In this document: positions 976-38,377 of the stretch, piece by piece | Layout: each line of letters begins with the position of its first letter | Numbering within the stretch: the first letter of the stretch is position 1 | Source: Actinobacteria bacterium UBA3086 | GTDB taxonomy: Bacteria; Actinomycetota; Coriobacteriia; Anaerosomatales; UBA3086 | Reading direction: 5' to 3' | NCBI GenBank assembly: GCA_002367305.1 | Contig: DFBG01000006.1 | Coordinates: forward strand, 1-44,960 | DNA: 44,960 bases | The notes under the pieces: generated by a model | The model's input: only the letters and a program-made list of their open reading frames with translations | What the model was told of the DNA's origin: nothing | Databases searched by the model: none | Position numbers and translations under genes: made by a program

Positions 976-1344
976 GTGGATAGCAGTGCGACCCAAAGCG
1001 TACTTTTCGTTGCTGGTCTGATCACGGCCGGTGTGGGATTCATCGCAATCGTCTTCGCACTCAATGCACTGCTCTCTCCTCGCAATCCCACTCCTGAGAA
1101 AGAAGAACCCTTTGAGTGCGGTATGCCGCAGGCCGGTGCACCCAACGTGGCTGTGCGCTTGCGCTTCGCCACCGTCGCCATGCTGTTCGTGCTCTTCGAC
1201 GCCGAAGCGATCCTGCTGTTCGCAGTGGTCCCGGCTCTTCATGGTTCGTGGATCGCAGTCGCCGAGGTGGGTGCGTTCACTGCGTTCCTGACGCTCGGTC
1301 TCGTGTACGCCTGGCGTAAGGGGGCCCTTCAGTGGCGTTGGTAG
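976..1344 (+). CDS. nuoA: NADH-quinone oxidoreductase subunit A
   Basis: 122 aa with three predicted TM segments and the NuoA-like core PFECGMP...RF..VAMLFVLFD.E. GTG start follows GAGGGGG. It is the first gene of the nuo cluster. Confidence 0.9.
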   Translation: MDSSATQSVLFVAGLITAGVGFIAIVFALNALLSPRNPTPEKEEPFECGMPQAGAPNVAVRLRFATVAMLFVLFDAEAILLFAVVPALHGSWIAVAEVGAFTAFLTLGLVYAWRKGALQWRW

Positions 1345-1898
1345 ACAAGCTCGGTGCTGCGCTTGACAGCAGTGGCGGCGGCATCATCCTCACCACGGTC
1401 GACTCTCTTGCCGACTGGGCTCGCGGCAAGTCACTCTGGTCCATGCCCATGGGCACTGCGTGCTGCGCCATGGAGCTCATCGCCGGCTCGTTCTCCAAGT
1501 TCGACTTCGATCGACACGGAACGTTTCCGCGGCCCGATCCGCGTCATGTCGACGTCATGATCGTCGCCGGCACCATCACCCGAAAGATGGCTCCCGCCGT
1601 CAAGAGGATCTATGAGCAGATGGCCGAGCCAAAATGGGTCATCGCCATGGGCAACTGTGCGGTGTCCGGTGGCATCTTCTACTACGATTCGTACTCGGTG
1701 ATCCGCGGGGTCGATGAGATCCTGCCTGTGGATGTCTATATTGCCGGGTGTCCTCCTCGTCCGGAGTCCATGCAGGATGCGGTATTCCAGTTGCGCGAGA
1801 AGATTGCAACGGAGTCGATCGCACCTGGCAAGAAGCGTGAGGTTGAGTTCTCGCTTCCCATGCCCGGCGCCGGGGTTCGCGGCGGTGACGCTGAGTGA
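1332..1898 (+). CDS. nuoB: NADH-quinone oxidoreductase subunit B
   Basis: Carries the N2-cluster cysteine motifs GTACCAMEL, GNCAVSGG and AGCPPRPE. The GTG start overlaps the nuoA end. Confidence 0.93.
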   Translation: MALVDKLGAALDSSGGGIILTTVDSLADWARGKSLWSMPMGTACCAMELIAGSFSKFDFDRHGTFPRPDPRHVDVMIVAGTITRKMAPAVKRIYEQMAEPKWVIAMGNCAVSGGIFYYDSYSVIRGVDEILPVDVYIAGCPPRPESMQDAVFQLREKIATESIAPGKKREVEFSLPMPGAGVRGGDAE

Positions 1899-2356
1899 AG
1901 ATCAACGAGCTCCGCGAGCACCTCTGCGCGCAGTACCCTGATCTCTGTCCGCTCTTCTCCATAGAATTCGGCGACGGAGTGCTCCTCGTTGAGTGCGGTC
2001 AGCTCCTGGGCGCGGCAAGCGACCTGAGAGACCTCGGTTTCGACCGCTTGGGTATGGTGACCGCGGTCGATCGTGGAGAGACCTTTGAGATGGTGTATCG
2101 GCTCACCTCACGGAGTATGTCGGCAGGCATCTTTCTCAAGTGTGAAGTTCCCCGCGACAATCCCGTCATTCAGTCCCTGACCTCCCTCTGGCCGGCTGCG
2201 AACTGGCACGAGCGCGAGGTCTACGACATGTTCGGCATCGAGTTCGAGGGACATCCGGACATGCGTCGGATACTGCTTCCGCCCGAGTGGGAAGGCTACC
2301 CACTGCGCAAGGACTATGAGGATGAACGCATCATCCATCGACCGGATTACATCTGA
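1895..2356 (+). CDS. nuoC: NADH-quinone oxidoreductase subunit C (short form)
   Basis: Contains LTSLWPAANWHEREVYDMFGIEFEGHPD, characteristic of NuoC. GTGA overlap with the nuoB stop. Confidence 0.9.
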   Translation: MKINELREHLCAQYPDLCPLFSIEFGDGVLLVECGQLLGAASDLRDLGFDRLGMVTAVDRGETFEMVYRLTSRSMSAGIFLKCEVPRDNPVIQSLTSLWPAANWHEREVYDMFGIEFEGHPDMRRILLPPEWEGYPLRKDYEDERIIHRPDYI

Positions 2357-3521
2357 TGCTGGGGAGGTGGATGCTGTGACGCTCAAGATAACTGAACGTA
2401 CCAAGAAGATTGCTACCGACGGGACACCCGTCGACGAGCTTGTGGTCAATGTGGGACCGTCGCACCCTTCGACCCATGGTGTGTGTCGTGTGATCACGCA
2501 CGTGGACGGCGAGATCGTGACCAAGGCCGAGCCCGTCATCGGGTACCTGCATCGTGGTGTCGAGAAGATCGCCGAGAACCGCACCTATCTGCAGGTCGTG
2601 CCGCTTACAGACAGACTCGACTACGTGGGCTCCATGTACACCAACTGGGCGTATAGCCGCTCAGTGGAGCGTCTCGCCGGCATTCGGGTCCCGGAGCGTG
2701 CAGAGTACCTGCGCGTGATCACCTGCGAGATGCAACGCATGGCAAGTCATATGATGTCGCTCGGTTCGACCTCTGGTGACTCAGGTGCCACGACGGCGTT
2801 CATCTACTCGTTCGACATCCGCGAGCGGGTCATCGAGTTCTTCGAGGATCTATGCGGCTCACGGCTCACCTATAACTATGTACGTCCCGGTGGCGTGAGC
2901 ATGGAGGTTCCGGACGGATGGTTCGACGACATCCTTGCCTGGCTGCCCATTGCTCGTCAGTCGCTCTCAGAGCTCGATCGTCTCTTCTTTGGCAATCACA
3001 TCGCGCGTGGCCGACTCAAGGGCATCGGGGTTCTGTCGGCAGAGGATGCGGTGTCCTGGGGCGCGTCCGGCCCCGTGGCTCGCGGATCCGGTGTGAACTG
3101 GGACTTGCGCAAGCACGATACCTACTCTGTCTATCCTCGCTTTGATTTTGATGTGCCCATCGGCTCCAACGGTGATGCGTACGATCGCGCACGCTGCCGT
3201 CTGTTCGAGGTCTACGAGTCCATGCGCATCATTGAGCAGGCTATCGAGCAGATAGAGCCCGGCCCCATCAAGGCCGACGGTATTCCTCGCCTGATCGCCC
3301 CGCGACCGGGAGATGCGTACGATCACATCGAGTCCGCGCGCGGATCACTGGGCGTGTATCTCGTTTCCGATGGGAGTCCGCGCCCGTATCGCATGAAGGT
3401 GCGTTCTCCCGCTTTCTGCAACCTTGCGTTGCTACCGATGCTCGCTGAGGGTCATACGTTGTCCGACCTGGTCATCGTGCTCGGTTCATTAGACCCGGTG
3501 TTCGGGGAGGTCGACCGATGA
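2316..3521 (+). CDS. nuoD: NADH-quinone oxidoreductase subunit D
   Basis: Contains NVGPSHPSTHGV, GYLHRGVEK and the C-terminal DLVIVLGSLDPVFGEVDR. The maximal ORF is given. The real start may be GTG 2376, which follows GGGGAGGTGG after the nuoC stop. Confidence 0.92.
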   Translation: MRMNASSIDRITSDAGEVDAVTLKITERTKKIATDGTPVDELVVNVGPSHPSTHGVCRVITHVDGEIVTKAEPVIGYLHRGVEKIAENRTYLQVVPLTDRLDYVGSMYTNWAYSRSVERLAGIRVPERAEYLRVITCEMQRMASHMMSLGSTSGDSGATTAFIYSFDIRERVIEFFEDLCGSRLTYNYVRPGGVSMEVPDGWFDDILAWLPIARQSLSELDRLFFGNHIARGRLKGIGVLSAEDAVSWGASGPVARGSGVNWDLRKHDTYSVYPRFDFDVPIGSNGDAYDRARCRLFEVYESMRIIEQAIEQIEPGPIKADGIPRLIAPRPGDAYDHIESARGSLGVYLVSDGSPRPYRMKVRSPAFCNLALLPMLAEGHTLSDLVIVLGSLDPVFGEVDR

Positions 3522-4468
3522 CGGGATATGTCGGCGGATTGGTATTTGGACTGTCCGGAGGGATGGTCATAGCACTCGCAGCCCTTTTCGGGGTGTGGTG
3601 GGAGCGCAAGGTCGCAGGTCGCATACAGATGCGCCTCGGCCCGACAGAGATTGGTCCGGCAGGTGTGTTCCAGGCGCTTGCCGATACCATCAAGCTCCTA
3701 CTCAAAGAGGACATCACGCCGCGGCAGGCGGACAAGAAACTGTTCCGTGTCGCGCCGTTCTTGGTATTCACGCCCATCGCGATGTCGCTTGTGGTGATTC
3801 CGTTCGCCAATGGATGGGCGCCGCTCGACACGTCGGTGGGCATGTTGTTCTACCTGGCGGTTCCTGCGGTGTCGGTCATCGGCATTCTGATCGCTGGGTT
3901 CTCGTCGGGAAACACCTACGCCACGCTGGGCGGTATCCGTGGCGCGGCACAGATGATCTCGTATGAGTTGCCGCGCACACTGTCCGTGCTTGCCATAGCG
4001 ATTCTGGCAGGCACTCTTGCGCCGGTCGAGGTCATGGCACGGTACGAGTGGTGGTGGTTCCCGGTGTCGCTGCTGGGGTTCATCGTCTTCTTCATCTCAT
4101 CTGTAGCTGAGCTCAATCGCGCCCCGTTCAACATCCCTGAGGCCGATAGTGAACTTGTGGCTGGCTACTTTGCCGACTACTCGGGCATTCGATGGGCCAT
4201 CTTCATGATGTCTGAGTACGGAGGCATCGTTGCGACATCGTACTTTGGCGCGGCGATCTTCCTTGGAGGTTCCCAGGGCATCGGTGGTGTGCTGGGTGTC
4301 CTGCTCATATTCCTCAAGGCGATCCTGCTCATTACGGTGATCATCTGGGTCGGTTGGACGTTCCCCCGGTTTCGTTCCGACCAATTGCTCACTCTCGCGT
4401 GGAAGGTGCTGACGCCCATGGCGCTCGTACAGATCGTGATCGTGGGGGTGATCATTCCGTGGCTGTGA
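3518..4468 (+). CDS. nuoH: NADH-quinone oxidoreductase subunit H
   Basis: Polytopic membrane protein with WWERKVAGRIQMRLGP, ELNRAPFNIPEADSELVAGY and PRFRSDQL. ATGA overlap with the nuoD stop, so there is no room for nuoE/F/G. Confidence 0.93.
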   Translation: MTGYVGGLVFGLSGGMVIALAALFGVWWERKVAGRIQMRLGPTEIGPAGVFQALADTIKLLLKEDITPRQADKKLFRVAPFLVFTPIAMSLVVIPFANGWAPLDTSVGMLFYLAVPAVSVIGILIAGFSSGNTYATLGGIRGAAQMISYELPRTLSVLAIAILAGTLAPVEVMARYEWWWFPVSLLGFIVFFISSVAELNRAPFNIPEADSELVAGYFADYSGIRWAIFMMSEYGGIVATSYFGAAIFLGGSQGIGGVLGVLLIFLKAILLITVIIWVGWTFPRFRSDQLLTLAWKVLTPMALVQIVIVGVIIPWL

Positions 4469-4590
4469 GGTCGAATGACGGATCGGGTGCGCCTCCTAAC
4501 GGTCACATCGGTGCCCTTGAACATGAGTCAGATTCGGTGCTGTTGCACATCAACGTCTCCGACGAGGACCGCGGTGGGGTCGGTGGATTC

Positions 4591-6549
4591 GTGGACTCCT
4601 GGAAGTCCGTGTTCGCTGGCATGAAGATCACTGCGGTGAGAGCAATGGGCCCGACAAAGACCGTGCAGTACCCGCACGAGAAGTACGCTGTCTCGCCTCG
4701 CTGGCGCGGTGCCCTTGCGCTCAAAGGTGTTCTTGGGCGAGATGAGATACCCATCATCCGCGATGAGTCGCCGGTATACAACGCCGTGATACGGGATCTC
4801 TATGACAGGGAGCGGTTGCCTCCGTGCGTGGGAAACTGTCCCGCCAACGTGGATGCTCGTGGTCAGAACTACTACTTGGCCGAAGGTATGACCGCTGAGG
4901 CGTATGAACTGGTCCGTGAGCGCAACATCATGCCCGGAGTGCTCGGTCGCATCTGTCATCACCCCTGCGAAAGTGCGTGCCGTCGCAACTACTACGACGA
5001 GCCCATGGCGATCAGGCCACTCCACAGGTTCGCTTACGAGGAGTACGCCGATGTACGCGAGGAGCGCGTGAAAGTCTTTGAGCAGACGCGCGATCAACAG
5101 GTCGCCGTGATCGGCTCCGGGCCCTCAGGACTCGCAGCGGCTTTCGATCTCATGGCGCTCGGCTACCGGGTTGTCGTGTACGAGAAGGAGCGTGCTCCTG
5201 GAGGCGCGTTGTTCTCCGGTGTTCCATCGTACCGACTCCCTCGTGACGTTCTTTCCACAGAGATCAACGGTCTCGTGGATATGGGTCTCGATCTCAGGGT
5301 GGGTATCGAGATCGGGAAAGACGTGCCCATCGATCATCTTCTGGGCGAGTTCGATGCGGTCCTCATTGCCGGCGGACTTCAGACGAGCAGGATCATTCCG
5401 GTACCCGGTCACGACGCCGACGGTGTGCGGGGTGCCTTGGACTTCCTCAAGGACGCCAACTGGAAGGGCGATGCCGGCGTCAAGGGCAAGCGTGTTCTGG
5501 TCATCGGAGGCGGCAACGTCGCGGTCGATGTGGCGCGCTGTGCGCTGAGGACCGGCGCCACCGAGGTGAGACTCGCCTGCCTCGAGGGTGACGACGAGAT
5601 GCCCTGTCACCCCTGGGAGATCGAAGAAGCGGTCGACGAAGGTGTCATCGCCATGTGCTCGATGGGCCCGCATGAGGTCCTGACCACCGACGGTGTCGTC
5701 AGCGGTATGAAGATGCGCGAGTGCCTCTCGGTGTTCGATGAGATGGGTCGTTTCGCGCCCAACTACGGCGAGGATTACGCTGAGGTCGAGTGTGAGACCG
5801 TCGTGTTCGCCACGGGCACCGCTCCTGTGCTGCATGATCTCGTTGCCGGGTCGGATCTGGTGCTCAACGAGCGGGGAATCCTTCCGGTTGACGGAACGCT
5901 CTTCACCACCGTCATGCCCAACGTGTTCGCGTGCGGCGAGGTCGTGACAGGACCTGGTTCGGCCATCGGCTCCATTGCCACCGGCCATGAGGCTGCCACG
6001 TCCATTCATCGATATCTGTCTGGAGCGAGCCTCTCGGAGAATCGTACGGATCGGCCGGTTCCCGTTTACGAGAACTACCAGCCGGCGAGGTTGGATGGTG
6101 TCGAGGAGTCGCGCAAGCGGGTCAAGATGCCCATGGCTCGTCCGGAGGATCGCCGGAAGGACTTCCGACAGGTGGAGACCGGATTCACCCATCTGGAGGC
6201 AGTCAACGAGGCTGCACGATGTCTCCGCTGCCAGTCCGAGGTCTGCGTCGGCTGCACCTTCTGCGCGCGCACGTGTCCTGACTATGCGATTCAGGTTCAG
6301 CGCGTTGACGACCCCGGCCAGCGCGCCATCACTCGATACGACCTCGATCTCTCCAAATGTTCCTTCTGCGGCTTGTGTGCGGAGCAATGTCCGACGAACG
6401 CGCTCACCCACACGGGTCAGTACGAGCTTAGCTTCTTCCATCGCGATCTCATGGTGTTCGATCACGATGAGATGCTCCGCGATTGTGGCGGAACGCGAGC
6501 TACCGGTGCGGACGCTCATACCCAAGCCGATGCAGAGGAGGCCTCGTGA
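4591..6549 (+). CDS. nuoI: NuoI-like 2x[4Fe-4S] subunit interleaved with a GltD/NfnB-like FAD/NAD(P)H oxidoreductase module
   Basis: NuoI N-terminal motif: KTVQYPHEKYAVSPRWRG. GltD-like Fe-S region: CVGNCP...GRICHHPCESAC. FAD fold VAVIGSGPSGLAAA at 5101-5142. Second dinucleotide fold VLVIGGGNVAVDVA from 5494. NuoI core: CVGCTFCARTCP from 6244 and CSFCGLCAEQCP from 6358, followed by TNALTHTGQYELS. The start is uncertain. GTG 4591 is the best guess, and GTG 4537 and ATG 4621 are alternatives. The ORF-track start 4354 overlaps nuoH and is unlikely. Confidence 0.85.
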   Translation: MDSWKSVFAGMKITAVRAMGPTKTVQYPHEKYAVSPRWRGALALKGVLGRDEIPIIRDESPVYNAVIRDLYDRERLPPCVGNCPANVDARGQNYYLAEGMTAEAYELVRERNIMPGVLGRICHHPCESACRRNYYDEPMAIRPLHRFAYEEYADVREERVKVFEQTRDQQVAVIGSGPSGLAAAFDLMALGYRVVVYEKERAPGGALFSGVPSYRLPRDVLSTEINGLVDMGLDLRVGIEIGKDVPIDHLLGEFDAVLIAGGLQTSRIIPVPGHDADGVRGALDFLKDANWKGDAGVKGKRVLVIGGGNVAVDVARCALRTGATEVRLACLEGDDEMPCHPWEIEEAVDEGVIAMCSMGPHEVLTTDGVVSGMKMRECLSVFDEMGRFAPNYGEDYAEVECETVVFATGTAPVLHDLVAGSDLVLNERGILPVDGTLFTTVMPNVFACGEVVTGPGSAIGSIATGHEAATSIHRYLSGASLSENRTDRPVPVYENYQPARLDGVEESRKRVKMPMARPEDRRKDFRQVETGFTHLEAVNEAARCLRCQSEVCVGCTFCARTCPDYAIQVQRVDDPGQRAITRYDLDLSKCSFCGLCAEQCPTNALTHTGQYELSFFHRDLMVFDHDEMLRDCGGTRATGADAHTQADAEEAS

Positions 6550-7046
6550 GCTTCGATGGACCGTTCATGATCCAGCTCGCCCTCGGAGTTGTCGCGCTGC
6601 TAACCGCGTTGGCCGTGGTCGCGGTGCGAGAGATCACCCGGATGGCCGTCGCGCTGGGAGTGTTCTTACTCTCGGTCGCAGGTCTGTTCCTGTTCTACGG
6701 CGCGAGTTTCCTCGCCGCAGCTGAGGTGTTCGTGTACGTCGGCGGCGTGCTCGTTCTCATGCTGTTCGCCATCATGCTCGTGCAGCGCACCGATGCGGGA
6801 CGCGCAGCGCTGGAGAGTAGGCACGATATCGGGTCGGCTTCAGTCGCCATCGGCCTCTTTGTGATGCTCACGGTCGCACTTCGGGGTGTCTCCAATCGAT
6901 TCCAAGGCTCACCTGCGGGATCTTCAGTGCCTGAGCTTGCCGATGTGCTCATGGGTTCTCGTCTCGTTCAGTACGAGATGGCCGGCCTGCTTCTGTTGGT
7001 AGCTCTCGTGGCCGTGATCGTGATCGCGGGAGGTGACGAGCAATGA
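6546..7046 (+). CDS. nuoJ: NADH-quinone oxidoreductase subunit J
   Basis: Small membrane protein with AAAEVFVYVGGVLVLMLF and a position consistent with NuoJ. GTG 6546 follows GAGGAGG and overlaps the nuoI stop. Confidence 0.85.
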   Translation: MSFDGPFMIQLALGVVALLTALAVVAVREITRMAVALGVFLLSVAGLFLFYGASFLAAAEVFVYVGGVLVLMLFAIMLVQRTDAGRAALESRHDIGSASVAIGLFVMLTVALRGVSNRFQGSPAGSSVPELADVLMGSRLVQYEMAGLLLLVALVAVIVIAGGDEQ

Positions 7047-7357
7047 TGGGTGTTCTCGTTTCCGTCGCGGTGTTCTGTATTGGCGTATACGGAGTGCTCA
7101 CGCGCCGAGATATCGTGGGTGTGCTCGCCTCGGTAGAGGTGATGCTCGCCGGCGCGATGCTCGCACTCGTGGCCATCGCTTCCAGTGCAGACTCGGCCAC
7201 CGGCGTTCGCCCGCTCGCCGAGTCCATCGAGGCCGTCGGCCTGCTTCTTCTGGTTATTGCGGCTTCAGAGGCGGCCGTCGGACTGGCGCTTCTCGTGTCG
7301 GTCGCTCGCAGACGCGGCGTGACCCGAATCGATGAACTTCAGGAGGTGAAGGGCTGA
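7043..7357 (+). CDS. nuoK: NADH-quinone oxidoreductase subunit K
   Basis: 104 aa with 3 TM segments and the NuoK-like pattern (EVMLAGAMLALV, SEAAVGLALLV). ATGA overlap with nuoJ. Confidence 0.88.
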   Translation: MMGVLVSVAVFCIGVYGVLTRRDIVGVLASVEVMLAGAMLALVAIASSADSATGVRPLAESIEAVGLLLLVIAASEAAVGLALLVSVARRRGVTRIDELQEVKG

Positions 7358-7358: not shown

Positions 7359-9221
7359 ATGACATGGCTCATCGACAACGCATGGATCGCTGTGGCGCTG
7401 CCCTTCATTCTGGTCGTCCCCACATGGTTCGCGGGTCGTCTCAACAAGACGCTCGCTCCGGTCATGGCAGCTATCGGCCCGCTCGTGCTCATGGCTGCGG
7501 GCTTCTCGGCCATATTCAGCAACGGTGAAGGAGATCCCTCCGGCGGTTCCATCTCATGGATCCCGGGAGCGACCGACATCCACGCGGGCTGGATGCTCGA
7601 CGGACTGACCGCAGTCATGTTCGCTGTGGTGGGTGTGATCGCTCTCATGGTCGTCGTGTTCTCCATTGGCTACATGCATGGCGATAAAGGCTGGGCACGG
7701 TACTTCATGCTGCTGTCGCTCTTCACCGGATCCATGTCGCTGCTCGTGGCCGCCGACAGCATCCTCATACTCTTCGTAGGCTGGGAACTCGTGGGAGCGT
7801 GCTCGTACCTTCTCATCGGATTCTGGTTCGAGAAGCCATCTGCGGCTGCCGCCGCGGTCAAGGCGTTCATGGTCACACGCATAGGCGACGCCGGACTTCT
7901 GTTGGGCCTCGCACTGCTCATGCGTGAGGTGGGGAGTTTCGGTTTCACCGAAGTCTTCGCTGCGGTTGAGACGATCCCGTCGGGAACAGTCACGGCCATC
8001 GCTCTGCTGCTGTTCGTTGGCGCCGCGGGCAAATCCGCGCAGTTCCCGCTGCATATATGGTTGCCGGACGCCATGGAGGGTCCGACACCGGTCTCAGCGC
8101 TCATTCACGCCGCCACAATGGTTGCTGCCGGTGTGTTCCTGATTGCTCGCATGTGGCCGGTGTTCGAGGCTTCCGAGACGGCGCTCGTGGTCGTGCTCTC
8201 AATTGGCGCATTCACCGCTCTGGCGTCGGCGAGCATCGCGCTCGTTCAGAGAGATATCAAGAAGGTCCTTGCGTACTCAACGATCTCTCAACTGGGCTTC
8301 ATGTTTGCCGCCCTCGGTGCGGGTGCGTGGGGAATCGCGATGTTCCACCTGGTCACTCATGCGGCATTCAAGGCGCTTCTGTTCCTGGGATCCGGCAGTG
8401 TCATCCACGGTTCCGGTACCCAGGACATGCACGAGATGGGCGGACTCAGGCACTCCATGCCCATCACGGCGACCACATGGCTCTTGGGTGCCGGCGCGCT
8501 TGCAGGCGTACCTCCGCTGGCGGGCTTCTTCAGTAAGGACGAAGTGCTCCACGCGGTGTTCGGAGCTTCCCCTGTCGCGGGAGTCATGCTTGCAGTTGCG
8601 AGTCTCATGACCGCGTTCTATATCACTCGCGCTACGAAACTCACCTTCTTTGGAGCGTATAGGGGAGATGGCCATCCGCATGAAGGCGGTCTCTCCATGA
8701 CCGGTCCGCTGATGGTGCTGGGACTCGGCGCCGTCGGGTTGGGATTCTTTGGCCACGGTATCGCCGAGGTTCTGGGTGAGCACGCCGAATCACTCGATCC
8801 GGTGACCGCCATCGTATCCACCGCGATCGCTCTCATCGGGATCGCGTCGGCATGGTGGATCTACCGCGAGGACGTTGTGGCGGACCTGCGACTTCAGTCA
8901 CGTGTGGGTCGCATCTGGGACGCTGCAGCATCCGGTTATGGCGCCGACGCTGTTGCTGAACGAGGGTTCATTCGTCCGGTCATGTCCGGTTCTCGAGCGC
9001 TCTACGAGCGTTTCGAGCGATCCGTCGTGGATGGTGCAGCAGAGGGTTTCGCTCGTGCTGTGAACGGACTCGGACGCATTCTGTCATTGCTGCAGAACGG
9101 AGATGGTCAGTGGTACGGGGCAATGCTGGGGGCCGGCGTGGTCATCATGCTGGCTGTCGTGTGGTCGTACGACTCGATAAATCTATGGGCTGCGAACGTC
9201 TCGTCATGGATGGGTTGGTGA
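7359..9221 (+). CDS. nuoL: NADH-quinone oxidoreductase subunit L
   Basis: 620-aa antiporter-like subunit with GWELVGACSYLLIGFW, KSAQFPLHIWLPDAMEGPTPVSALIHAATMV and a long C-terminal extension. Confidence 0.92.
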   Translation: MTWLIDNAWIAVALPFILVVPTWFAGRLNKTLAPVMAAIGPLVLMAAGFSAIFSNGEGDPSGGSISWIPGATDIHAGWMLDGLTAVMFAVVGVIALMVVVFSIGYMHGDKGWARYFMLLSLFTGSMSLLVAADSILILFVGWELVGACSYLLIGFWFEKPSAAAAAVKAFMVTRIGDAGLLLGLALLMREVGSFGFTEVFAAVETIPSGTVTAIALLLFVGAAGKSAQFPLHIWLPDAMEGPTPVSALIHAATMVAAGVFLIARMWPVFEASETALVVVLSIGAFTALASASIALVQRDIKKVLAYSTISQLGFMFAALGAGAWGIAMFHLVTHAAFKALLFLGSGSVIHGSGTQDMHEMGGLRHSMPITATTWLLGAGALAGVPPLAGFFSKDEVLHAVFGASPVAGVMLAVASLMTAFYITRATKLTFFGAYRGDGHPHEGGLSMTGPLMVLGLGAVGLGFFGHGIAEVLGEHAESLDPVTAIVSTAIALIGIASAWWIYREDVVADLRLQSRVGRIWDAAASGYGADAVAERGFIRPVMSGSRALYERFERSVVDGAAEGFARAVNGLGRILSLLQNGDGQWYGAMLGAGVVIMLAVVWSYDSINLWAANVSSWMGW

Positions 9222-9228: not shown

Positions 9229-10701
9229 ATGAGCCTTCACCTACTCGTTCTCATACCTCTCCTCGGCGCAATCGTTCTCGGATGCATGCGTTCTGCGTCG
9301 ATAGAGCGCGCGCGTGTCGTGAGTCTCCTGTTCACGTTGTCGGCCCTAGGTGTGTTCCTCACCACCTTGGGCTCGGGGGCTTTCGACGGGGGAGAGCTGG
9401 TGGCGCCTTCGGCGGCACTGGGCGAACTCACCTCCTATCGTTTGGCGATGGACGGACTGTCGGCACCGTTCGTGGCGCTCACGGTCGTCCTCGGGATCAT
9501 CGCGGTCCTCAGTTCCTGGCGAATCTCGGACAGGCCTGCCGCGCATCACGCGTTGCTGCTCGCTCTGCAAGCAGCGGTGACCGGCGTGTTCCTGGCGCAG
9601 GATGTGATCCTCTTCTACGTGTTCTGGGAGGCTGTCCTCATTCCGATGTTCTTCCTCATCGGCGTATGGGGTCATGAGGATCGCAGGCATGCTGCACTCA
9701 AGTTCTTCATCTACACATTCGCAGGTAGCGCTCTTATGCTCATCGGCATTCTGCTCGCCGTGTACTCCACGGGTGAGACGAGCATGGCTGGCGTGGTCAC
9801 GGGATTCCAGGCGATGCGCGAGTACTACGCCAACTCTGGCGTAGCACTCCCGGTGAGTCCCACTCTCGTCTTCTGGCTGATCATGATCGGTCTGCTGGTC
9901 AAGGTGCCAGCCGTACCGGTGCACACGTGGCTGCCCGATGCGCACGTTGAGGCACCCACTGCAGGTTCTGTCATGTTGGCGGGTGTGCTGCTCAAGATGG
10001 GTGGCTACGGGATGATCCGGTTGGGTATCCCGCTGGCACCCGATGTGTTTGCAGATGCCCGAGTCATCTTCGCCATCCTCGGTATCGCAGGCGTCGTCTA
10101 TGGCGCGATCATGGCTTTGAGCCAGTCGGACTTGAAGCGACTGGTCGCTTACTCCTCAGTCGCGCACATGGGCTTCTCGCTCATCGCACTGTCCACAGGG
10201 ACGTTGAACGGGCAGATAGCCGCTGTTCTCATCATGGTCAGCCACGGTGTCGTGTCGGCACTCATGTTCTTCTTGGTCGGCGAGCTCTACGATCGTACGC
10301 ATACACGAGAGATCGATCGGTTCTCCGGCATGGCTCGACTCATGCCGGCATGGGGAACCGTGTTCACATTCGGTGCGCTCGCCAGCTTGGGATTGCCCGG
10401 TCTGTCAGGCTTCCCTGGTGAGTTCATGGCGATAGTGGAGGGTTTCAACGACCTCGGATGGTGGATGCTCATCGTGTTATTGGGTGTGATCCTCGGAGGA
10501 GCGTACAACCTTCGTGCAGTCTTCGCGGTCGGCCACGGACCCGCCGCAAGCGAGTGGGCCGGTGTCTCCGATCTGGACGGGCGTGCGATTCTGGTCGCTC
10601 TGGTCCTCGCCGTTCTCATCGTGATCCTGGGCGTGTGGCCCCGTGCGGTCATAGACGTGGCCACACCCGCTCTATCGATGATTCTGAAAGGGGGTGCGTG
10701 A
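9229..10701 (+). CDS. nuoM: NADH-quinone oxidoreductase subunit M
   Basis: 490-aa antiporter-like subunit with FYVFWEAVLIPMFFLIGVWG, VPVHTWLPDAHVEAPTAGSVMLAGVLLKMGGYG and AYSSVAHMG. Confidence 0.92.
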   Translation: MSLHLLVLIPLLGAIVLGCMRSASIERARVVSLLFTLSALGVFLTTLGSGAFDGGELVAPSAALGELTSYRLAMDGLSAPFVALTVVLGIIAVLSSWRISDRPAAHHALLLALQAAVTGVFLAQDVILFYVFWEAVLIPMFFLIGVWGHEDRRHAALKFFIYTFAGSALMLIGILLAVYSTGETSMAGVVTGFQAMREYYANSGVALPVSPTLVFWLIMIGLLVKVPAVPVHTWLPDAHVEAPTAGSVMLAGVLLKMGGYGMIRLGIPLAPDVFADARVIFAILGIAGVVYGAIMALSQSDLKRLVAYSSVAHMGFSLIALSTGTLNGQIAAVLIMVSHGVVSALMFFLVGELYDRTHTREIDRFSGMARLMPAWGTVFTFGALASLGLPGLSGFPGEFMAIVEGFNDLGWWMLIVLLGVILGGAYNLRAVFAVGHGPAASEWAGVSDLDGRAILVALVLAVLIVILGVWPRAVIDVATPALSMILKGGA

Positions 10702-10702
10702 C

Positions 10703-12229
10703 ATGCCTGAGCCGATCATGAGCCCCTCGTTGACGCTCGCTCTTCCAGTGATCCTGGCCGTACTCGGTGGCGCAGCGTGCCTGCTGTTCGATGCATTCGC
10801 GCGTCCTCGCACCGCCGTTGCGGCAAGTGCTCTGGGGCTGACAGCTGGCGCGATTGCGGCCGGTGTGGTCGTTGTGGACGGTCTTGTGAACGAGATTGCG
10901 TTTCTGGACATCGCCTATGACATGTTCGTGGTGGGCGGCGGGTTCTCGTTCCTGCATTTCGTCATACTCGCCATTGGCGCGATCATCCTCTGGGCAGCAC
11001 TTCCTGTCTTATCCGAGACCTCACGAGGTCCGGGGCAGGCCGCACTGCTGGCTTTCACCGCTGCCGCCTCGGTTCTCCTGCTGGGCGCACTCGACATCCT
11101 CACCGTGCTCCTGGCCTTTGAGATCATCGCCATCACGGGGTACGCACTGGTCGCTGCCGGGGGATCCGGAGCCGCCGATGAAGCGGCCATCAAGTACCTC
11201 GTGCAGGGCGCGCTAGCCGCTGCTATGTTCGTCATGGGTCTGGCGATCATGTTCGGTCTGTATGGCGGCGTAACGGACGTTCGCATTCTCTCATCGTTCC
11301 TGCAGCAGGAGAGTTCGGAGCCTGCGTTGGCCGCCATGGTCCTTCTGTTCGCCGCTTTCATATTCAAACTGGGCGGGTTCCCGTTCCACTCATGGGCACC
11401 TGATGCCTACGAGACGATTCGGCCTGAGGTAGGCGCGTTCGTTGCCACTGCGCCCAAGGTCAGTGCGATGAGTGCACTCTTCATGATCTTCTTCCGTTCT
11501 TTCTCTCTGGACGGTCTGCCGCTCGACGCTCTGTTCGGGGCCGGGGCGCTGGGGGAGCGAATGGTATGGCTCGTTGCTGCGGTAGCTGCCATGTCGATCG
11601 TGTTCGGTAACACTGCGGCCCTGCGTCAGAGTTCCTACACGCGAATGCTCGCCTATTCCGGTATCGCGCAGGTCGGCTATGCCGTGTCCGCCATGGTCCT
11701 GTCCGGCCGCGCTATGTTCCACTCGGTCTTCATGATGGTCGCGTACGCCATCGCTGCAGCCGGTGCGTTCCTAGTCGCCGCCGCCGTGTATCGATACCGG
11801 TCGGACTGGGACGGGAGTATCCGTGGACTAGCCGGAATCGGGCGTGAGAGACCGCTCCTGGGCTTTTCGCTCGCGGTTCTGATGTTCTCTCTCACCGGTA
11901 TCCCCATGACGGCTGGATTCATGGGCAAGTATCTGGTCTTCGCCGCACTCGCAGTCAACGGATGGACGTGGCTTGCAATACTCGGTGCCATTGGTTCCGC
12001 AGTGTCGTTCGGATACTACGGGTCGGTGTTGCGGTGGGCGTTCTTCGAGGATGCACCTGCCGACGAGACCGCCGAGATGCCCCAGGACTCAACACTGGAA
12101 TCGCCATGCAACGCACTCACGTGGGGGGCGACCGTCTTTGTAGCGTTGACGCTGCTCATTGGGTGTCAGCCGCTGCTCATGTCGCTCGATATCGCAGCTC
12201 GGCTTCTGGATCTCGGCTTCGGCGCCTAA
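10703..12229 (+). CDS. nuoN: NADH-quinone oxidoreductase subunit N
   Basis: Antiporter-like subunit with GGFPFHSWAPDAYE and MLAYSGIAQVGY. ATG 10703 follows AAAGGGGG. GTG 10694 is an alternative start. Confidence 0.9.
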   Translation: MPEPIMSPSLTLALPVILAVLGGAACLLFDAFARPRTAVAASALGLTAGAIAAGVVVVDGLVNEIAFLDIAYDMFVVGGGFSFLHFVILAIGAIILWAALPVLSETSRGPGQAALLAFTAAASVLLLGALDILTVLLAFEIIAITGYALVAAGGSGAADEAAIKYLVQGALAAAMFVMGLAIMFGLYGGVTDVRILSSFLQQESSEPALAAMVLLFAAFIFKLGGFPFHSWAPDAYETIRPEVGAFVATAPKVSAMSALFMIFFRSFSLDGLPLDALFGAGALGERMVWLVAAVAAMSIVFGNTAALRQSSYTRMLAYSGIAQVGYAVSAMVLSGRAMFHSVFMMVAYAIAAAGAFLVAAAVYRYRSDWDGSIRGLAGIGRERPLLGFSLAVLMFSLTGIPMTAGFMGKYLVFAALAVNGWTWLAILGAIGSAVSFGYYGSVLRWAFFEDAPADETAEMPQDSTLESPCNALTWGATVFVALTLLIGCQPLLMSLDIAARLLDLGFGA

Positions 12230-12335: not shown

Positions 12336-12372
12336 GAGCCTCAAGGTGCCGGCCTTGGGGCTCCCCCATTTT
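12336..12372 (+). terminator. Candidate intrinsic terminator (for the nuo operon and/or a short independent transcript)
   Basis: gagcctcaagg / tgccgg / ccttggggctc forms an 11-bp stem with one G-U, followed by ccccaTTTTc. The T-tract is short and offset by 5 nt. Confidence 0.35.
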
Positions 12373-12540
12373 CTGTGGCACTTTCAGGCATATACCCCTC
12401 TTTGCGTCTCGGTATTATTGTGTCGCTCCTGTCTGGATGAGGGGCATGAATTGCCGATGAACCGCATATTGTGCCGTTCATCCAATCGAGATGCGTCGGG
12501 CATTAAGGGCACGCATTCACTAACCGATACTTCAGGGGAC

Positions 12541-12804
12541 ATGATTATTTCTGAGGAGCAGGTCAGACTCGCCGTCAGATACCTGCAGACGCCAGACGCA
12601 AAGTGCGCAGATCTCCAAGGCTGCAGCGCGGTCTCCATCCCTCCCGAGCTCCTCGACAGGGTCAAGGCTGAACTTGACTCGACGCCTGAGACTCGACAGG
12701 ACAGGGTTGACCATGCGCGCACCATGCTTGACGGTCATACTCCCTCGTCTCGTGAGGTGGCCGACAAGATGATCGGGCGTATAGTCTCCGATTCGCTCCG
12801 CTAG
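12541..12804 (+). CDS. Small protein with an FlgM-like (anti-sigma-28 family) C-terminus
   Basis: 87 aa starting at ATG 12541, which follows CAGGGGAC. The C-terminal RQDRVDHARTMLDGHTPSSREVADKMIGRIVSD fits the FlgM pattern (RV...k..i..G.y.v....vAdKml). The upstream part of ORF 12346-12804 looks non-coding. Confidence 0.4.
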   Translation: MIISEEQVRLAVRYLQTPDAKCADLQGCSAVSIPPELLDRVKAELDSTPETRQDRVDHARTMLDGHTPSSREVADKMIGRIVSDSLR

Positions 12805-12900: not shown

Positions 12901-13185
12901 ATGAATCCGAAACCCCTTCGTGGTTTGATCAGTTTCTTCATGAATCTCCTGATTCTGCTCGCGATCGCTCTGACCGTGAAGGTCGTGATCGTGTTCTTTG
13001 GCGCGATCTCATCGCTTGATTGGGTCGACGCGATCGTGACCATTACCGATCTTGTGACACTGCCGCTGGGCGTTGATTCCATTGCTACTCCCTATGGGGG
13101 CGTGTTCGACGTGGACGCCGCCATTACCGTCGGTTGTCTGCTGTTGGCTGAGTGGGGACTCAGCGCGGTGCGCAATAGGGCATAG
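12901..13185 (+). CDS. Small two-TM membrane protein (possibly YggT-like)
   Basis: ATG 12901 follows GGAG. There is an N-terminal hydrophobic helix (FFMNLLILLAIALTVKVVIVFFG) and a C-terminal one (AAITVGCLLLAEWGLSAV). No firm family call. Confidence 0.5.
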   Translation: MNPKPLRGLISFFMNLLILLAIALTVKVVIVFFGAISSLDWVDAIVTITDLVTLPLGVDSIATPYGGVFDVDAAITVGCLLLAEWGLSAVRNRA

Positions 13186-16082: not shown

Positions 16083-17386
16083 GTGACCTGACGTTTGAGG
16101 AACTGCTCGAGATCAAGCGCGACGGTCATACGTATACAGCTGCGCAGATCGATCGCATCGTCCTTGGATACGCTGACGGCGAGATGCCTGAGTACCAGAT
16201 GTCGGCGTGGCTCATGGCGGCGTATATCAACGGCCTCAATGCCGACGAGACCGTGTGGCTCACCGACGCCATGGTCCGTTCCGGCCGCACGATCGATCTG
16301 AGCTCCATTCCCGGTATCAAGGTGGATAAGCACTCCACCGGCGGGGTCGCGGATACAACCACGCTTGTTCTTGCCCCGCTTGTGGCTGCGTGCGGAGTTC
16401 CCGTGGCGAAGATGAGCGGTCGTGGGCTTGGGCATACTGGAGGCACACTCGACAAACTCGAGTCGATTCCGGGCTTTCGTATCCAGTTGGAGCCCGAGGA
16501 TTTTCTTGCGCAGGTGCGCGACATAGGCGTTGCCGTTATGGCGCAATCTCCCGATATCGATCCCGCCGACAAGATGATGTACGCGCTTCGGGACGTGACA
16601 GCGACCGTCCCCAGTATTCCGCTCATCGTCGGCTCTATCATCTCCAAGAAGATCGCCGGTGGCGCCGACGCGATCGTTCTCGACGTCAAGGTGGGCTCCG
16701 GAGCGTTCATGAAGACCGAGGAGCAAGCGCGCACACTCGCGTCCGAACTGACAAGAGTGGGTCGCGCGCTGGGCCGTGATGTGGTCTGCATCATGAGTGA
16801 CATGGACCAGCCGCTGGGTATGGCCGTGGGCAACTCACTCGAGGTCATCGAAGCGATTGAAACGCTTCGGGGCGAGGGTCCCGCTGCTCTCACTGAGCTC
16901 TGTTACACCTTCGGTTCGCGCATGCTCACCTTGGGCGGAGTCGCGACCGACGACAACATAGCGCGCGGCATGCTGAAGGAGGCGATCGAGACGGGTGCGG
17001 GTCTTGCGGTCTTTGAGCGTTGGATCGAGGCGCAGGGGGGCAATCCGCAGGTTGCGCGTGATACCTCTCTGCTTCCTCTTTCACCGTACTCGCGCGATGT
17101 CACCGTAGGGCATGAGGGTTACATCTCCGGATTCGACACTGAGGGCGTGGGCCGGGCTGCGATGCTTCTGGGGGCGGGTCGTGCCACCAAGGACGATGAC
17201 ATCGATCTCGGCGCGGGACTCATGCTCCACGTTCGCGTCGGCGATCGTGTACATGTGGACACTCCGCTGGCGACTCTCTACGCGGCCAACGAGCGGTTGC
17301 TGGACGCGGGCGAAGAGCGGCTCATGTCAGCATTCCGTGTCAGCGTCACGTCGGTCGTCGCTCCACCGCTGTTCCACGAACTCTGA
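16079..17386 (+). CDS. pdp: Pyrimidine-nucleoside (thymidine) phosphorylase
   Basis: Contains VDKHSTGGVADTTTLVLAPL and KMSGRGLGHTGGTLDKLESIPGF. GTG 16079 (GTGA overlap with deoB, GGAGG 8 nt upstream) is preferred over GTG 16070. Confidence 0.92.
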   Translation: MSDLTFEELLEIKRDGHTYTAAQIDRIVLGYADGEMPEYQMSAWLMAAYINGLNADETVWLTDAMVRSGRTIDLSSIPGIKVDKHSTGGVADTTTLVLAPLVAACGVPVAKMSGRGLGHTGGTLDKLESIPGFRIQLEPEDFLAQVRDIGVAVMAQSPDIDPADKMMYALRDVTATVPSIPLIVGSIISKKIAGGADAIVLDVKVGSGAFMKTEEQARTLASELTRVGRALGRDVVCIMSDMDQPLGMAVGNSLEVIEAIETLRGEGPAALTELCYTFGSRMLTLGGVATDDNIARGMLKEAIETGAGLAVFERWIEAQGGNPQVARDTSLLPLSPYSRDVTVGHEGYISGFDTEGVGRAAMLLGAGRATKDDDIDLGAGLMLHVRVGDRVHVDTPLATLYAANERLLDAGEERLMSAFRVSVTSVVAPPLFHEL

Positions 17387-17408
17387 TTCAGGGGAGGGCG
17401 CATACATC

Positions 17409-23256: not shown

Positions 23257-24027
23257 ATGGTCACAGCTAGTGAGCAGGGGGCGCACGGGGAGCGGATAGT
23301 CCCCATGCGTCTTCAGAAGTTTCTCGCGCGTGCCGGAGTCGCCTCGCGTCGCGGCTCCGAGGATCTCATGACCGCCGGCCGCGTTGCGGTGAACGGCGAG
23401 ATCGTCACCGAGCTCGGTTCCAAGGTGGACCCGCGCGTGGATGTAGTCACGGTTGACGGTGCCGCAGTGGAGTTGGCAGATGGCCCCGTCTATCTTGTGC
23501 TCAACAAGCCAGCGGGCTATCTGACGACCATGGCCGACCCGCAGGGTAGGCCCACCGTTGCCGACATCGTGCCCCGTGAGCCGGCTGGCCTGTTCCCGGT
23601 CGGTCGGCTGGACAAGGATACTACCGGCGTTCTCCTCTTCATGACCGACGGCGATCTGGCCCACCGACTTCTGCATCCCAAGTATCACGTGGAAAAGCGG
23701 TACATCGCCACCGTCGAGGGCGCGCCTTCTGATGGGAATCTCAAGCGTCTCGCCCGTGGCATTGAACTGGACGATGGCCCCACCAAGCCAGCTCGCATTC
23801 GGCGACTCGCCCAGAGCTCTTTGGGCACGTCTGTTGAGATCGTGATCAGCGAGGGTCGCAAACGGCAGGTCAAGCGTATGTTCCTCGCCATCGGTCATCC
23901 CGTGGTTGTTCTGCATAGGGCTTCGTTCGGGCCGGTGGAGTTGGGTGATCTGGCGGAGGGGCTCACTCGTCCTCTCACAGGACGGGAGCTTGAGTCGCTC
24001 AAGGCAGCATCGGTCGGTGGCAAATGA
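23257..24027 (+). CDS. rluB: RsuA/RluB-family rRNA pseudouridine synthase
   Basis: S4 domain (RLQKFLARAGVASRRGSEDLMTAGRVAVNG), catalytic GRLDKDTTGVLL and EGRKRQVKRM. The start is ATG 23257 or ATG 23305. Confidence 0.88.
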   Translation: MVTASEQGAHGERIVPMRLQKFLARAGVASRRGSEDLMTAGRVAVNGEIVTELGSKVDPRVDVVTVDGAAVELADGPVYLVLNKPAGYLTTMADPQGRPTVADIVPREPAGLFPVGRLDKDTTGVLLFMTDGDLAHRLLHPKYHVEKRYIATVEGAPSDGNLKRLARGIELDDGPTKPARIRRLAQSSLGTSVEIVISEGRKRQVKRMFLAIGHPVVVLHRASFGPVELGDLAEGLTRPLTGRELESLKAASVGGK

Positions 24028-24629
24028 GCCTCGTGTTTCTCACCGGCGCTGCGCGGAGCGGCAAGTCGGCCGCAGCGCTATCGCTCGCGCTTCGATCTGA
24101 GACTCCAGTGACGGTGATCGTGTTCGGTCGCGGTGATGACCCTGAGATGCGGGATCGCATCGCTCGGCATCAGGCGGATCGCCCTGCGGGTTGGCGCACT
24201 GTTGAGGCCCACGATGATGAAGCGCTGCTCACCGCTATAGAGTCTGACGACTGCATCCTGTTCGACTGTTTGGGCACGTTCGTGGGGTCCGTTATGGAGT
24301 CCGAGATCACAGAACTGGGTGTAGCGGACGCTTTCGAGGCGGATGTTGTGCCACGGGGTCTCGAAATTCGTGTCGAGGCACGTGTCGATAGGGCGATCGC
24401 GTCGCTTTTGGACCGCACGGGGCGCACGATCGTGGTCTCCAACGAAGTCGGATCCGGTGTCGTTCCCGCTACGTGGAGTGGTCGGTTGTTTCGGGATATC
24501 GTCGGCAGGGCGAATCGCCGATTGGCGAGCGAAGCCGCTGCGGCGTATCTAGTGACCTGCGGCCGGTGTCAGGATCTGGGAGTACTACCTGAGGTCGATG
24601 ATCTGTCGTGGCCTCAGGACATCTTGTGA
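24024..24629 (+). CDS. cobU: Adenosylcobinamide kinase / adenosylcobinamide-phosphate guanylyltransferase
   Basis: P-loop TGAARSGKS, with size and NEVGSGVVP typical of CobU/CobP. ATGA overlap with rluB. Confidence 0.85.
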   Translation: MSLVFLTGAARSGKSAAALSLALRSETPVTVIVFGRGDDPEMRDRIARHQADRPAGWRTVEAHDDEALLTAIESDDCILFDCLGTFVGSVMESEITELGVADAFEADVVPRGLEIRVEARVDRAIASLLDRTGRTIVVSNEVGSGVVPATWSGRLFRDIVGRANRRLASEAAAAYLVTCGRCQDLGVLPEVDDLSWPQDIL

Positions 24630-24672
24630 ACGAGAGCAACGGGCAATAGAGCCCATACCGAATGGAGACCGT

Positions 24673-26541: not shown

Positions 26542-26542
26542 G

Positions 26543-27130
26543 ATGGATGAGAGACGAATTCTGCTCGTACGTCATCCCGAGACCGAGGCGAACGTGAACG
26601 GTCGATTCGTTGGTCGCGGTGATGTTCCATACACGGTTCGTGGCGAGCGACAGGCGCTTCTCGCGGTCGATGCCATCGCTGATTTCGAACCTGATGAGGT
26701 CTGGTCCAGCCCGTTGCGACGGGCGCATTACGTTGCTCGGAACGCAGCGACGCGTCTTGGTGTGGCGCATACGATAGATGAACGACTCAGCGAGCTGGAT
26801 TTCGGTGAAGCCGAGGGGCTCACGTATGAGGAGACTCAGCAACGTGGCATTGCGTTCGAGTTCGGCGCTGAAGACGTCCCTGTAGCCCCTGGCGGCGAGT
26901 CGCGCCGCGACATCTTGATCAGGTCGGGTGCGGGCGTTGACGCGGCCTCAGAGCGAGCCCGACGTGTCGCTATCGTGACGCACGGCGGAGTGTTCCGCTC
27001 CGCGATGGTGCATCTGCTGCAGCTTCCCATCGACGCTATCTGGTCGTTTGATATCCGCAATGCGCAGTGCGCCGAGTTCCGTATCGTCGACGGGCACGCC
27101 ATGTTGGAGCGTTTCTGGCAGGTGGGCTGA
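26543..27130 (+). CDS. cobC: Histidine-phosphatase family protein, likely alpha-ribazole phosphatase
   Basis: ILLVRHPETEANVNGRFVG (RHG-type motif) and a later THGGV. Position after cobS. ATG 26543 is preferred over TTG 26534. Confidence 0.75.
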   Translation: MDERRILLVRHPETEANVNGRFVGRGDVPYTVRGERQALLAVDAIADFEPDEVWSSPLRRAHYVARNAATRLGVAHTIDERLSELDFGEAEGLTYEETQQRGIAFEFGAEDVPVAPGGESRRDILIRSGAGVDAASERARRVAIVTHGGVFRSAMVHLLQLPIDAIWSFDIRNAQCAEFRIVDGHAMLERFWQVG

Positions 27131-38325: not shown

Positions 38326-38377
38326 GGAACAGATGCTTCTGTTCTCGGACCCCTCGTTGGGCATAGATTCACTAGGC

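Follow-up and report, generated by a model that had tools for sequence, protein, structure and literature searches.

We have analysed a stretch of 44,960 nucleotides (nt) from Actinobacteria bacterium UBA3086, a member of the Anaerosomatales (contig DFBG01000006.1 of assembly GCA_002367305.1, positions 1 to 44,960), and refer to the whole stretch as the window. According to an NCBIfam profile search, it carries a contiguous complex I operon on the + strand, nuoABCDH-I-JKLMN, in which the gene between nuoH and nuoJ encodes a protein of 694 amino acids (aa). Judged from its sequence, this protein is NuoI with an insertion rather than a standard member of the family, and we call it the NuoI-GltD fusion. 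Profile searches have found no nuoE, nuoF or nuoG in the operon or in the remainder of the 45-kb window. As read in the translations, NuoB has kept the ligands of cluster N2 (CC...C...CP), and NuoD has kept the His (PSTHGV) and Tyr (RLDYV) of the quinone site and shows no NiFe cysteines. Mrp-type membrane subunits (MnhE/F/G, MbhD/E) and a hydrogenase- or Mbx-like large subunit are not present in the window, which holds NuoA/J/K/L/M/N and the quinone-type NuoD instead. A paralogous cluster outside complex I is ruled out by the full nuoA-N synteny together with the N2 ligands and the quinone-site residues.

Residues are numbered on the 694-aa protein. The open reading frame (ORF) had been described in an earlier note on this DNA, made from the sequence alone, as uninterrupted between nuoH and nuoJ. 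This is indeed the case: there is no internal stop and a single stop at the end, the frame is open from 4354, and both flanks are identified by NCBIfam. All the motifs quoted in that note have also been found in the sequence. Its start at 4591 is less secure. A GTG at 4465 overlaps the nuoH stop (GTGA) and an identical protein of 694 aa is recorded at NCBI (P0001), so that 4465 is more probably the start. On the other hand, the GTG at 4591 may still be used, since conservation and model confidence are both low over the first 38 residues. At the 3' end, the GTG of nuoJ overlaps the stop of the fusion gene, and an AGGAGG ribosome-binding site lies 6 nt 5' of nuoJ.

Both ends of the protein are NuoI, as the earlier note had claimed, and the evidence comes from matches in the PDB and from TIGR01971. 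At the C-terminus, positions 40-121 of the 121 positions of TIGR01971 (NuoI) match with an E-value of 1.7e-26; because only these positions match, the score of 92.2 bits stays below the cut-off of 113.05. Residues 590-675 match the mitochondrial TYKY and bacterial NuoI chains in the PDB (E ~3e-18), and this core contains two CxxCxxCxxxCP motifs (C594/597/600/604-P and C632/635/638/642-P) as well as the NuoI-typical "RYDLDLSKCSFCG" hairpin. For the N-terminus, residues 1-118 were searched against all PDB sequences, and 26 of the 27 matches (E <= 10) are N-termini of NuoI, TYKY or NdhI, the best having an E-value of 0.008. These matches (region 45-89) all align at an equivalent position, i.e., at the helix and the YPxEK...SPRFRGEHAL motif. 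In an alignment of 12 fusions reaching down to 34% identity (alignment A1), T66, Y69, P70, R81 and G82 of this motif are invariant in 12/12. The matched pieces correspond to residues 28-57 and 61-144 of Paracoccus NuoI (8qby_I), and to 27-69 and 73-159 of bovine TYKY. Since only 3 residues separate the two pieces, the ~500 residues of the insert (90-593) replace three loop residues before the first cluster motif.

For the insert, Pfam gives Fer4_20 (E 2.9e-17) and Pyr_redox_2 (3.5e-24), both above their cut-offs; Fer4_7 (5.3e-10) is also matched in the protein, and PRK12771 of NCBIfam covers residues 73-606. The profile hidden Markov model scan that the earlier note had proposed thus places Fer4_20 and Pyr_redox_2 in the middle of the protein and TIGR01971 at its C-terminus, with the N-terminal NuoI match coming from the PDB sequence search. 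The closest solved relatives by sequence are the Nfn-ABC large subunit (9bov_A, 1.8e-87), StnC (8oh5_C, 2.4e-83) and NfnB (4ylf_B, 4.9e-70), and further PDB matches include Thermococcus sibiricus NfnA, NfnL, GltD and DPD. We have built an AlphaFold2 model on a 66-sequence alignment that includes soluble relatives. The model is confident, with a predicted local distance difference test score (pLDDT) of 88.2 and a predicted template modelling score (pTM) of 0.84. A Foldseek comparison of the model with the PDB ranks these proteins just as the sequence search did, with StnC and the Nfn-ABC large subunit as the best matches.

The segments of this module stand in a changed order. NfnB 46-461 aligns with residues 120-520, and NfnB 5-47 ("RxxFxEVxxGY...EAxRCLQC") with residues 550-594 (E 3.9e-6). 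As the counterpart of the N-terminal segment of NfnB sits after the flavoprotein domains, the GltD module is circularly permuted, as in StnC. The GltD-type Fe-S region noticed earlier therefore holds only in part: five of the seven module cysteines (C121, C125, C164, C168, C172) are there, while C586 and C589 lie elsewhere, in the RCLRC that follows the flavoprotein domains. The flavin adenine dinucleotide (FAD) fold with its GxGxxG and the second dinucleotide fold are both present, with a Pyr_redox_2 match and near-invariant motif columns. The coordinates of the operon genes and of the segments of the fusion are collected in Table 1.

Table 1 Genes of the nuo operon and segments of the NuoI-GltD fusion in the window.
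Feature	Position	Strand	Evidence
nuoA	976-1344	+	NCBIfam NuoA models, E 1e-15
nuoB	1332-1898	+	NCBIfam NF005012, 223 bits, above cut-off
nuoC	1895-2356	+	TIGR01961, 127.6 bits, above cut-off
nuoD	2316-3521, exact start uncertain	+	NF004739, 451.8 bits, above cut-off
nuoH	3518-4468	+	NF004741, 316.5 bits, above cut-off
nuoI (NuoI-GltD fusion, 694 aa)	4465-6549	+	ORF; identical NCBI protein P0001
nuoJ	6546-7046	+	NCBIfam
nuoK	7043-7357	+	NF004320, 68.1 bits, above cut-off
nuoL	7359-9221	+	NF005141, 621 bits, above cut-off
nuoM	9229-10701	+	TIGR01972, 459 bits
nuoN	10694-12229	+	TIGR01770, E 5.8e-72, below cut-off; best matches all NuoN
Fusion, residues 1-38: N-terminal extension	4465-4578	+	Weakly conserved; pLDDT <50; weak similarity to P0121 only
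Fusion, residues 39-89: NuoI N-terminal helix and TxxYPxEK...PRWRGxLxL motif	4579-4731	+	PDB matches; helix 39-61 in model
Fusion, residues 90-117: start of insert, linker/helix	4732-4815	+	Only in some fusion lineages (alignment A1); model helix 102-114
Fusion, residues 118-195: Fer4_20 Fe-S region	4816-5049	+	Pfam; C121, C125-P, C164, C168, E169, C172, His187
Fusion, residues 196-520: FAD Rossmann fold (GSGPSG, E240, PGG, YR257LP) and NAD(P)H Rossmann fold (GGGNVAVD; L373-E374)	5050-6024	+	Pfam Pyr_redox_2
Fusion, residues 521-549: poorly conserved linker	6025-6111	+	Alignment A1
Fusion, residues 550-593: permuted 'N-terminal' GltD segment (RxxFxxVExG...EAxRCLRC)	6112-6243	+	Matches NfnB 4ylf_B 5-47; has C586, C589
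Fusion, residues 594-680: NuoI 2x[4Fe-4S] core (CVGCTFCARTCP ... RYDLDLSKCSFCGLCAEQCP) and NuoI C-terminal segment	6244-6504	+	TIGR01971; TYKY/NuoI PDB matches

Conservation and relatives of the fusion

None of the 15 cysteines (7 in the module, 8 in NuoI) varies among the 12 fusions of alignment A1, and the FAD GxGxxG, the GG and YRLP flavin motifs, the NAD GxGxxA and the NuoI N-terminal motif are likewise invariant. In the 66-sequence alignment, C125, C164, C168, C172, C586 and C589 are invariant in 66/66 and C121 is found in 65/66; G217/G219/G222, E240, G246-G247, R257 and G348/G350/A353 show little or no variation, and E169 is conserved. This conservation rules out degenerate flavin or NAD motifs, which the earlier note had named as something that would count against its reading.

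We have patterned the assignment of cluster ligands on StnC, NfnB and DPD, and this pattern would hold for the fusion as well. Seven Cys and His187 are present for the two predicted [4Fe-4S] clusters of the module. Position 187 is His or Lys throughout the 66 sequences: among the 120 closest homologues, His occurs in all of the 107 that could be scored by pattern, with Lys in none, and Lys is found in the most distant fusions and in the soluble relatives. His187 aligns with Lys170 of StnC and with a Glu of NfnB. In StnC, three Cys and Lys170 bind the FAD-proximal cluster C7, and Glu takes that position in NfnB (PMC10482914).

The second Rossmann fold carries L373-E374 after beta-2, and "(C/S)LE" is seen here in the fusion of the window and in 60/66 aligned sequences. 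A residue-by-residue alignment shows "YRR" after beta-2 in the solved NADPH-dependent relatives StnC, Nfn-ABC and T. sibiricus NfnA. An acidic residue after beta-2 normally favours NADH over NADPH, which is a general rule for Rossmann folds. Since Leu-Glu stands where the NADPH enzymes have Arg-Arg, it is likelier that the Anaerosomatales-type module would prefer NADH over NADPH.

More than 120 clusters, formed at 90% identity, contain the NuoI-GltD architecture. The 120 best matches listed in the search of these clusters are all at least 67% identical across 95% or more of the length; the assemblies behind them are from NCBI, JGI, ENA and Logan, and the named ones are metagenome-assembled genomes of Coriobacteriia, Anaerosomatales or Actinomycetota. 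A single contig of 2.5 Mb (OW818687.1) has the same neighbourhood as the window, i.e., ABC-F, nuoABCDH-I-JKLMN with the fusion, a small membrane ORF, pilB, deoB and pdp. More distant fusions, with 34-49% identity, were obtained by searching 1.84 billion representatives (P0122-P0128, P0150, P0165, P0192). One fusion cluster is annotated as Candidatus Subteraquimicrobiales (class Ca. Aquicultoria, Actinomycetota), and another as Actinomycetota. The names given to these proteins by NCBI and JGI are "FAD-dependent oxidoreductase" or "glutamate synthase beta subunit-like". We have examined the loci of five relatives, and four of them, three distant fusions (L020, L021, L022) and a complete Anaerosomatales genome (L026), have the fusion within nuoABCDH-I-JK... 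operons. The nuo operon of L022 (11196-17962) contains four Proton_antipo_M subunits, not three, and an extra 107-aa gene, which suggests that the predicted complex has an enlarged membrane arm.

In the fifth relative (L023), the fusion takes the NuoI position of an Mbh operon. This locus (CP046244.1, 326073-345944) encodes a membrane [NiFe] hydrogenase of the Mrp-Mbh type together with the maturation proteins Hyp and HycI, and the arrangement would imply an NAD(P)H-linked, ion-pumping hydrogenase. QGP91017.1 of Moorella glycerini (623 aa, annotated 'Ferredoxin--NADP reductase'), the GltD-insert protein of this locus, comes right after the NuoH homologue and fills the NuoI/MbhN position. The nearest soluble relatives (P0129, P0142) are ~40% identical over residues 118-648; they have ~700 aa and consist of the module, a 2x[4Fe-4S] domain and FlpD/MvhD. 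At two loci (L024, 6001-8103; L025, 2642-4735) the soluble relatives lie beside MetV (DUF5981) and MetF in Wood-Ljungdahl clusters with carbon monoxide dehydrogenase/acetyl-CoA synthase (CODH/ACS), and they may serve as NAD(P)H-input subunits of methylene-tetrahydrofolate reductase. Like the fusion, they have the permuted module, an LE nucleotide site and a 2x[4Fe-4S] domain after the module. They differ from the fusion by the lack of a NuoI N-terminus, by Lys instead of His, by the MvhD-like C-terminal domain and by their soluble context, and the gap between RCLxC and the ferredoxin motif is 12 residues in them versus 4 in the fusion.

In a rough neighbour-joining tree of the module, the Nuo fusions stand apart from the soluble proteins and form two groups, the LE type and the YRR type, while the GltD part of the Moorella protein groups with the soluble relatives and not with the Nuo fusions. 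This topology, although the tree is not robust, suggests that the Nuo fusions may share one origin and that the Mbh fusion may have another.

Proposed electron path and its alternatives

Taking these results together, we consider it probable that the fusion is the NuoI of an 11-subunit, NuoEFG-less complex I, with a built-in GltD/NfnB-type NAD(P)H entry module wired to N6a/N6b and N2. A self-contained entry module of this kind had been proposed in the earlier note, and it is now supported in silico by the NuoI termini, the intact module, the structural model, the precedent of StnC and the nuoEFG-less operon. NAD(P)H, probably NADH, would bind to the second Rossmann fold and reduce the FAD by hydride transfer. 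Single electrons would then pass to the FAD-proximal [4Fe-4S] cluster, probably held by C125, C164, C168 and His187, and next to the distal [4Fe-4S] cluster, probably on C121, C172, C586 and C589. Only four residues separate RCLRC from the first NuoI cysteine, with C589 five residues before C594. As RCLRC adjoins the NuoI core in this way, the distal cluster would be tethered near N6a/N6b, and electron transfer to them is possible. From N6a/N6b, the electrons would go to N2 in NuoB and to a quinone-type acceptor at the conserved NuoD/NuoH site, where the redox step would drive the NuoL/M/N proton pumps. In this way, the module would take over the role of NuoEFG with a single flavin and two clusters. 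Such an enzyme should also be able to run backwards, and autotrophs growing on H2 or formate could use the proton-motive force to make NAD(P)H from quinol. The sequences show the gene structure and synteny, the homologies, the conserved motifs and the distribution; we infer the ligands, the cluster distances, the nucleotide preference, the acceptor and the direction, and the wiring follows from homology and sequence adjacency.

The GltD region of StnC (aa 102-565) sits between the [2Fe-2S] part and the later parts of a NuoG-like protein, and it holds FAD, NADPH and the clusters C7 and C6. Experiments have shown that it passes electrons of NADPH along a linear chain, from FAD to C7, C6 and further clusters, and that its FAD does not bifurcate (PMC10482914). 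By analogy, StnC is a direct precedent for the cassette as a plug-in NAD(P)H input to the cluster chain of its host.

A more specific version of this proposal is that some anaerobic Actinomycetota feed complex I in a further, independent manner: their 11-subunit enzyme would be a complete NADH:quinone oxidoreductase in which one FAD and two clusters within NuoI replace the three subunits of NuoEFG with their FMN, its proximal cluster would be His-ligated, and the permuted GltD cassette would be a mobile plug-in inserted in NuoG-like proteins (StnC), in the NuoI of complex I and in the MbhN of membrane hydrogenases. We lean towards this version, though only slightly. Several points weigh against the entry-module reading as a whole. 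Respiratory quinones were not detected in two cultured Anaerosomatales (PMC9686372); their absence sits badly with the conserved quinone site, and the acceptor is uncertain. Six distant fusions retain the NADPH-type YRR, and the putative NADH preference rests on a single sequence rule, that of the acidic residue after beta-2.

The same device might also run in the opposite direction. Quinol, reduced by a group 1i [NiFe] hydrogenase or by formate dehydrogenase, would then deliver electrons through N2, N6 and the GltD clusters to FAD and NAD(P)+, so that the module is an exit driven by the proton-motive force, serving Wood-Ljungdahl fixation. Complex I is known to be reversible, and the closest soluble relatives of the module are located in Wood-Ljungdahl clusters. 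Moreover, the cultured relatives are lithoautotrophic on H2 or formate, and one of them has a membrane, quinone-linked uptake hydrogenase only (PMC9686372). Since this isolate grows autotrophically with such a hydrogenase, it is physiologically plausible that the enzyme runs in reverse and makes NAD(P)H from quinol. However, the sequence sets no direction, the quinones missing from the cultured strains (PMC9686372) count against this operation too, and it is a mode of the entry-module reading rather than a different device; as the main function it seems unlikely to us. The missing quinones would suit another arrangement, namely a quinone-independent ferredoxin:NAD(P)+ oxidoreductase with an Rnf-like job, in which ferredoxin feeds the NuoI clusters, the GltD module reduces NAD(P)+, and ions are pumped. 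The authors of the OPB41 study proposed ferredoxin as the donor (PMC9686372), and the GltD-like subunit of Mbx-like operons was read as an NAD(P)+-reducing site by Degli Esposti 2015 (PMC4758237). For Mbx-like complexes with a GltD-type subunit, a comparable role has been put forward. Nevertheless, the quinone-site His/Tyr of NuoD and the N2 ligands of NuoB are conserved, and coupling needs redox chemistry at NuoD/NuoB/NuoH, a site which a peripheral path from ferredoxin to NAD would bypass. The insert also probably covers the docking surface for ferredoxin or NuoG near N6a. We thus give this arrangement a low probability.

A bifurcating or ferredoxin role of the module is unlikely in general. 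For the bifurcating or confurcating input, the NfnB-like FAD would split the electrons of NAD(P)H between the complex I chain and, e.g., ferredoxin. The homology to NfnB, whose FAD does bifurcate, and the conserved flavin-site arginine R257 speak for it, but NfnAB needs a second path through the [2Fe-2S] of NfnA, and no NfnA-like gene (FNR-like FAD and [2Fe-2S]) has been found in the window, in L020-L022 or in L026. StnC, the closest solved relative with the permuted architecture, does not bifurcate at the equivalent FAD (PMC10482914), and we regard this role as very improbable. An artefact or a decayed gene, i.e., a chimera or a frameshift-fused pair of nuoI and a gltD-like gene, is suggested by the unusual length and by nothing more. 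GC content and GC content at third codon positions (GC3) are uniform across the insert junctions; these flat values and the recurrence of the architecture in many independent assemblies exclude a chimera, and together with the invariant residues they rule out a frameshift fusion as well. Besides the identical 694-aa record, there are the related clusters from four assembly sources and the 2.5-Mb contig with the same gene order, the catalytic and ligand residues are invariant, and the NuoI halves would not work if split. The chance of an artefact is hence practically negligible.

Neighbouring genes in the window

Two small ORFs follow the operon on the + strand. The ORF at 12346-12804 (152 aa), directly 3' of nuoN, has no NCBIfam or Pfam match, and no gene is called at its place in L026. 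Between nuoN and pilB, a predicted membrane protein of ~94 aa (12901-13185), which has no Pfam match, has a counterpart at the same position of L026 (18231-18515) with 47% identity; it could be an accessory protein of the nuo or pil neighbour. Further 3', also on the + strand, the gene at 17112-20027 encodes a 971-aa protein with a DHH/CBS-type N-terminal part and an A-adding tRNA nucleotidyltransferase (NF041569, E 5e-191, below cut-off).

Amid housekeeping genes, cobU, cobT, cobS and a histidine phosphatase/cobC-like gene (24024-27130, +) form a set for the lower ligand and nucleotide loop of cobalamin, which is consistent with a corrinoid-dependent (Wood-Ljungdahl) lifestyle. An FMN riboswitch (RF00050, 112.9 bits; 38205-38324, +) stands ahead of ribD-ribE-ribBA-ribH (38270-41855). 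As the mechanically assigned TTG start of ribD (38270) falls inside the riboswitch, the real start of ribD should be further downstream. At 42947-44598 (+), an Rrf2-family regulator is followed by a class-V aminotransferase (cysteine desulfurase-like), which is probably an Fe-S cluster assembly locus.

Relation to known systems and significance

With canonical NuoI/Nqo9/TYKY (NDUFS8), the fusion shares the N-terminal helix, YPxEK...PRFRG, the two CxxCxxCxxxCP motifs, the RYDxDxxKCxFCG hairpin, the C-terminal segment and the position between nuoH and nuoJ. However, canonical NuoI has ~150-230 aa and no flavin domain, while the fusion has 694 aa and is predicted to bind FAD, NAD(P)H and two additional clusters. 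StnC of the Stn transhydrogenase from Sporomusa (8OH5) and the Nfn-ABC/Bfu large subunit (9BOV, 9N5U) have the same permuted module, C-x3-CP ... C-x3-CE-x2-C ... FAD ... NAD ... RCLxC, inside a host Fe-S protein, to whose clusters it passes the electrons of pyridine nucleotides. Their host is a soluble NuoG/FdhF-like protein of a bifurcating complex, whereas here it is the NuoI of a membrane complex, and Lys170 and YRR (NADPH) of StnC are replaced by His187 and LE. In NfnB/SudA, GltD and the N-terminal module of DPD, on the other hand, the RCLxC segment is N-terminal instead of following the flavoprotein domains, and NfnB and GltD have a partner, NfnA or GltB, which the fusion lacks.

FpoF (F420H2), NdhS/V/O with ferredoxin (photosynthetic NDH-1) and NuoX/Y with flavodoxin (Campylobacter) feed the NuoI/NuoB cluster chain of 11-subunit complex I without NuoEFG. 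These are separate subunits or carriers, while in the fusion the predicted dehydrogenase lies within the NuoI polypeptide and would use NAD(P)H. There are also Mbx/Mbh-like operons in which the NuoH homologue is followed, at the NuoI/MbhN position, by a flavoprotein of the GltD type that carries a ferredoxin domain. Unlike the operon of the window, these complexes have Mrp-type subunits, and in the example from Moorella the large subunit is a genuine [NiFe] one, with no quinone site. In Mbx-like operons, NuoI was described as "substituted by a flavoprotein related to gltD" (Degli Esposti 2015, PMC4758237), i.e., as a substitution and not an insertion. This remark is the nearest that our literature search has found, and the search turned up no account of a nuo operon with a NuoI-GltD fusion. 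A 'gltD' drawn in the neighbourhood of nuo and met genes in Merino 2020 may be the soluble relative linked to MetFV. For cultured Anaerosomatales, nuoNMLKJIHDCBA has been reported with NuoEFG absent and ferredoxin proposed as the donor, the flavoprotein domain being unmentioned (PMC9686372), and the electron donor of the 11-subunit complex I was still stated as an open question in 2024 (PMC11238625). What is new is thus a known cassette, the permuted GltD module, in a new host, the NuoI of what is predicted to be a true quinone-type complex I.

The gene itself suggests how the NuoEFG-less complex I of this lineage is fed, namely by a dehydrogenase built into NuoI. If this is true, complex I would here have a minimal form in which only a short wire links NAD(P)H to N2, an attractive object for studies of structure and mechanism, and the N-module would have been replaced convergently. 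Since two relatives are in culture, this can be tested directly. Confirmation would also correct a systematic misannotation, as the labels "FAD-dependent oxidoreductase" and "glutamate synthase small subunit" would conceal a complex I subunit. Overall, metabolic reconstructions of OPB41/Anaerosomatales and related subsurface Actinomycetota would shift from a ferredoxin-driven complex to an NAD(P)H-linked and possibly reversible one.

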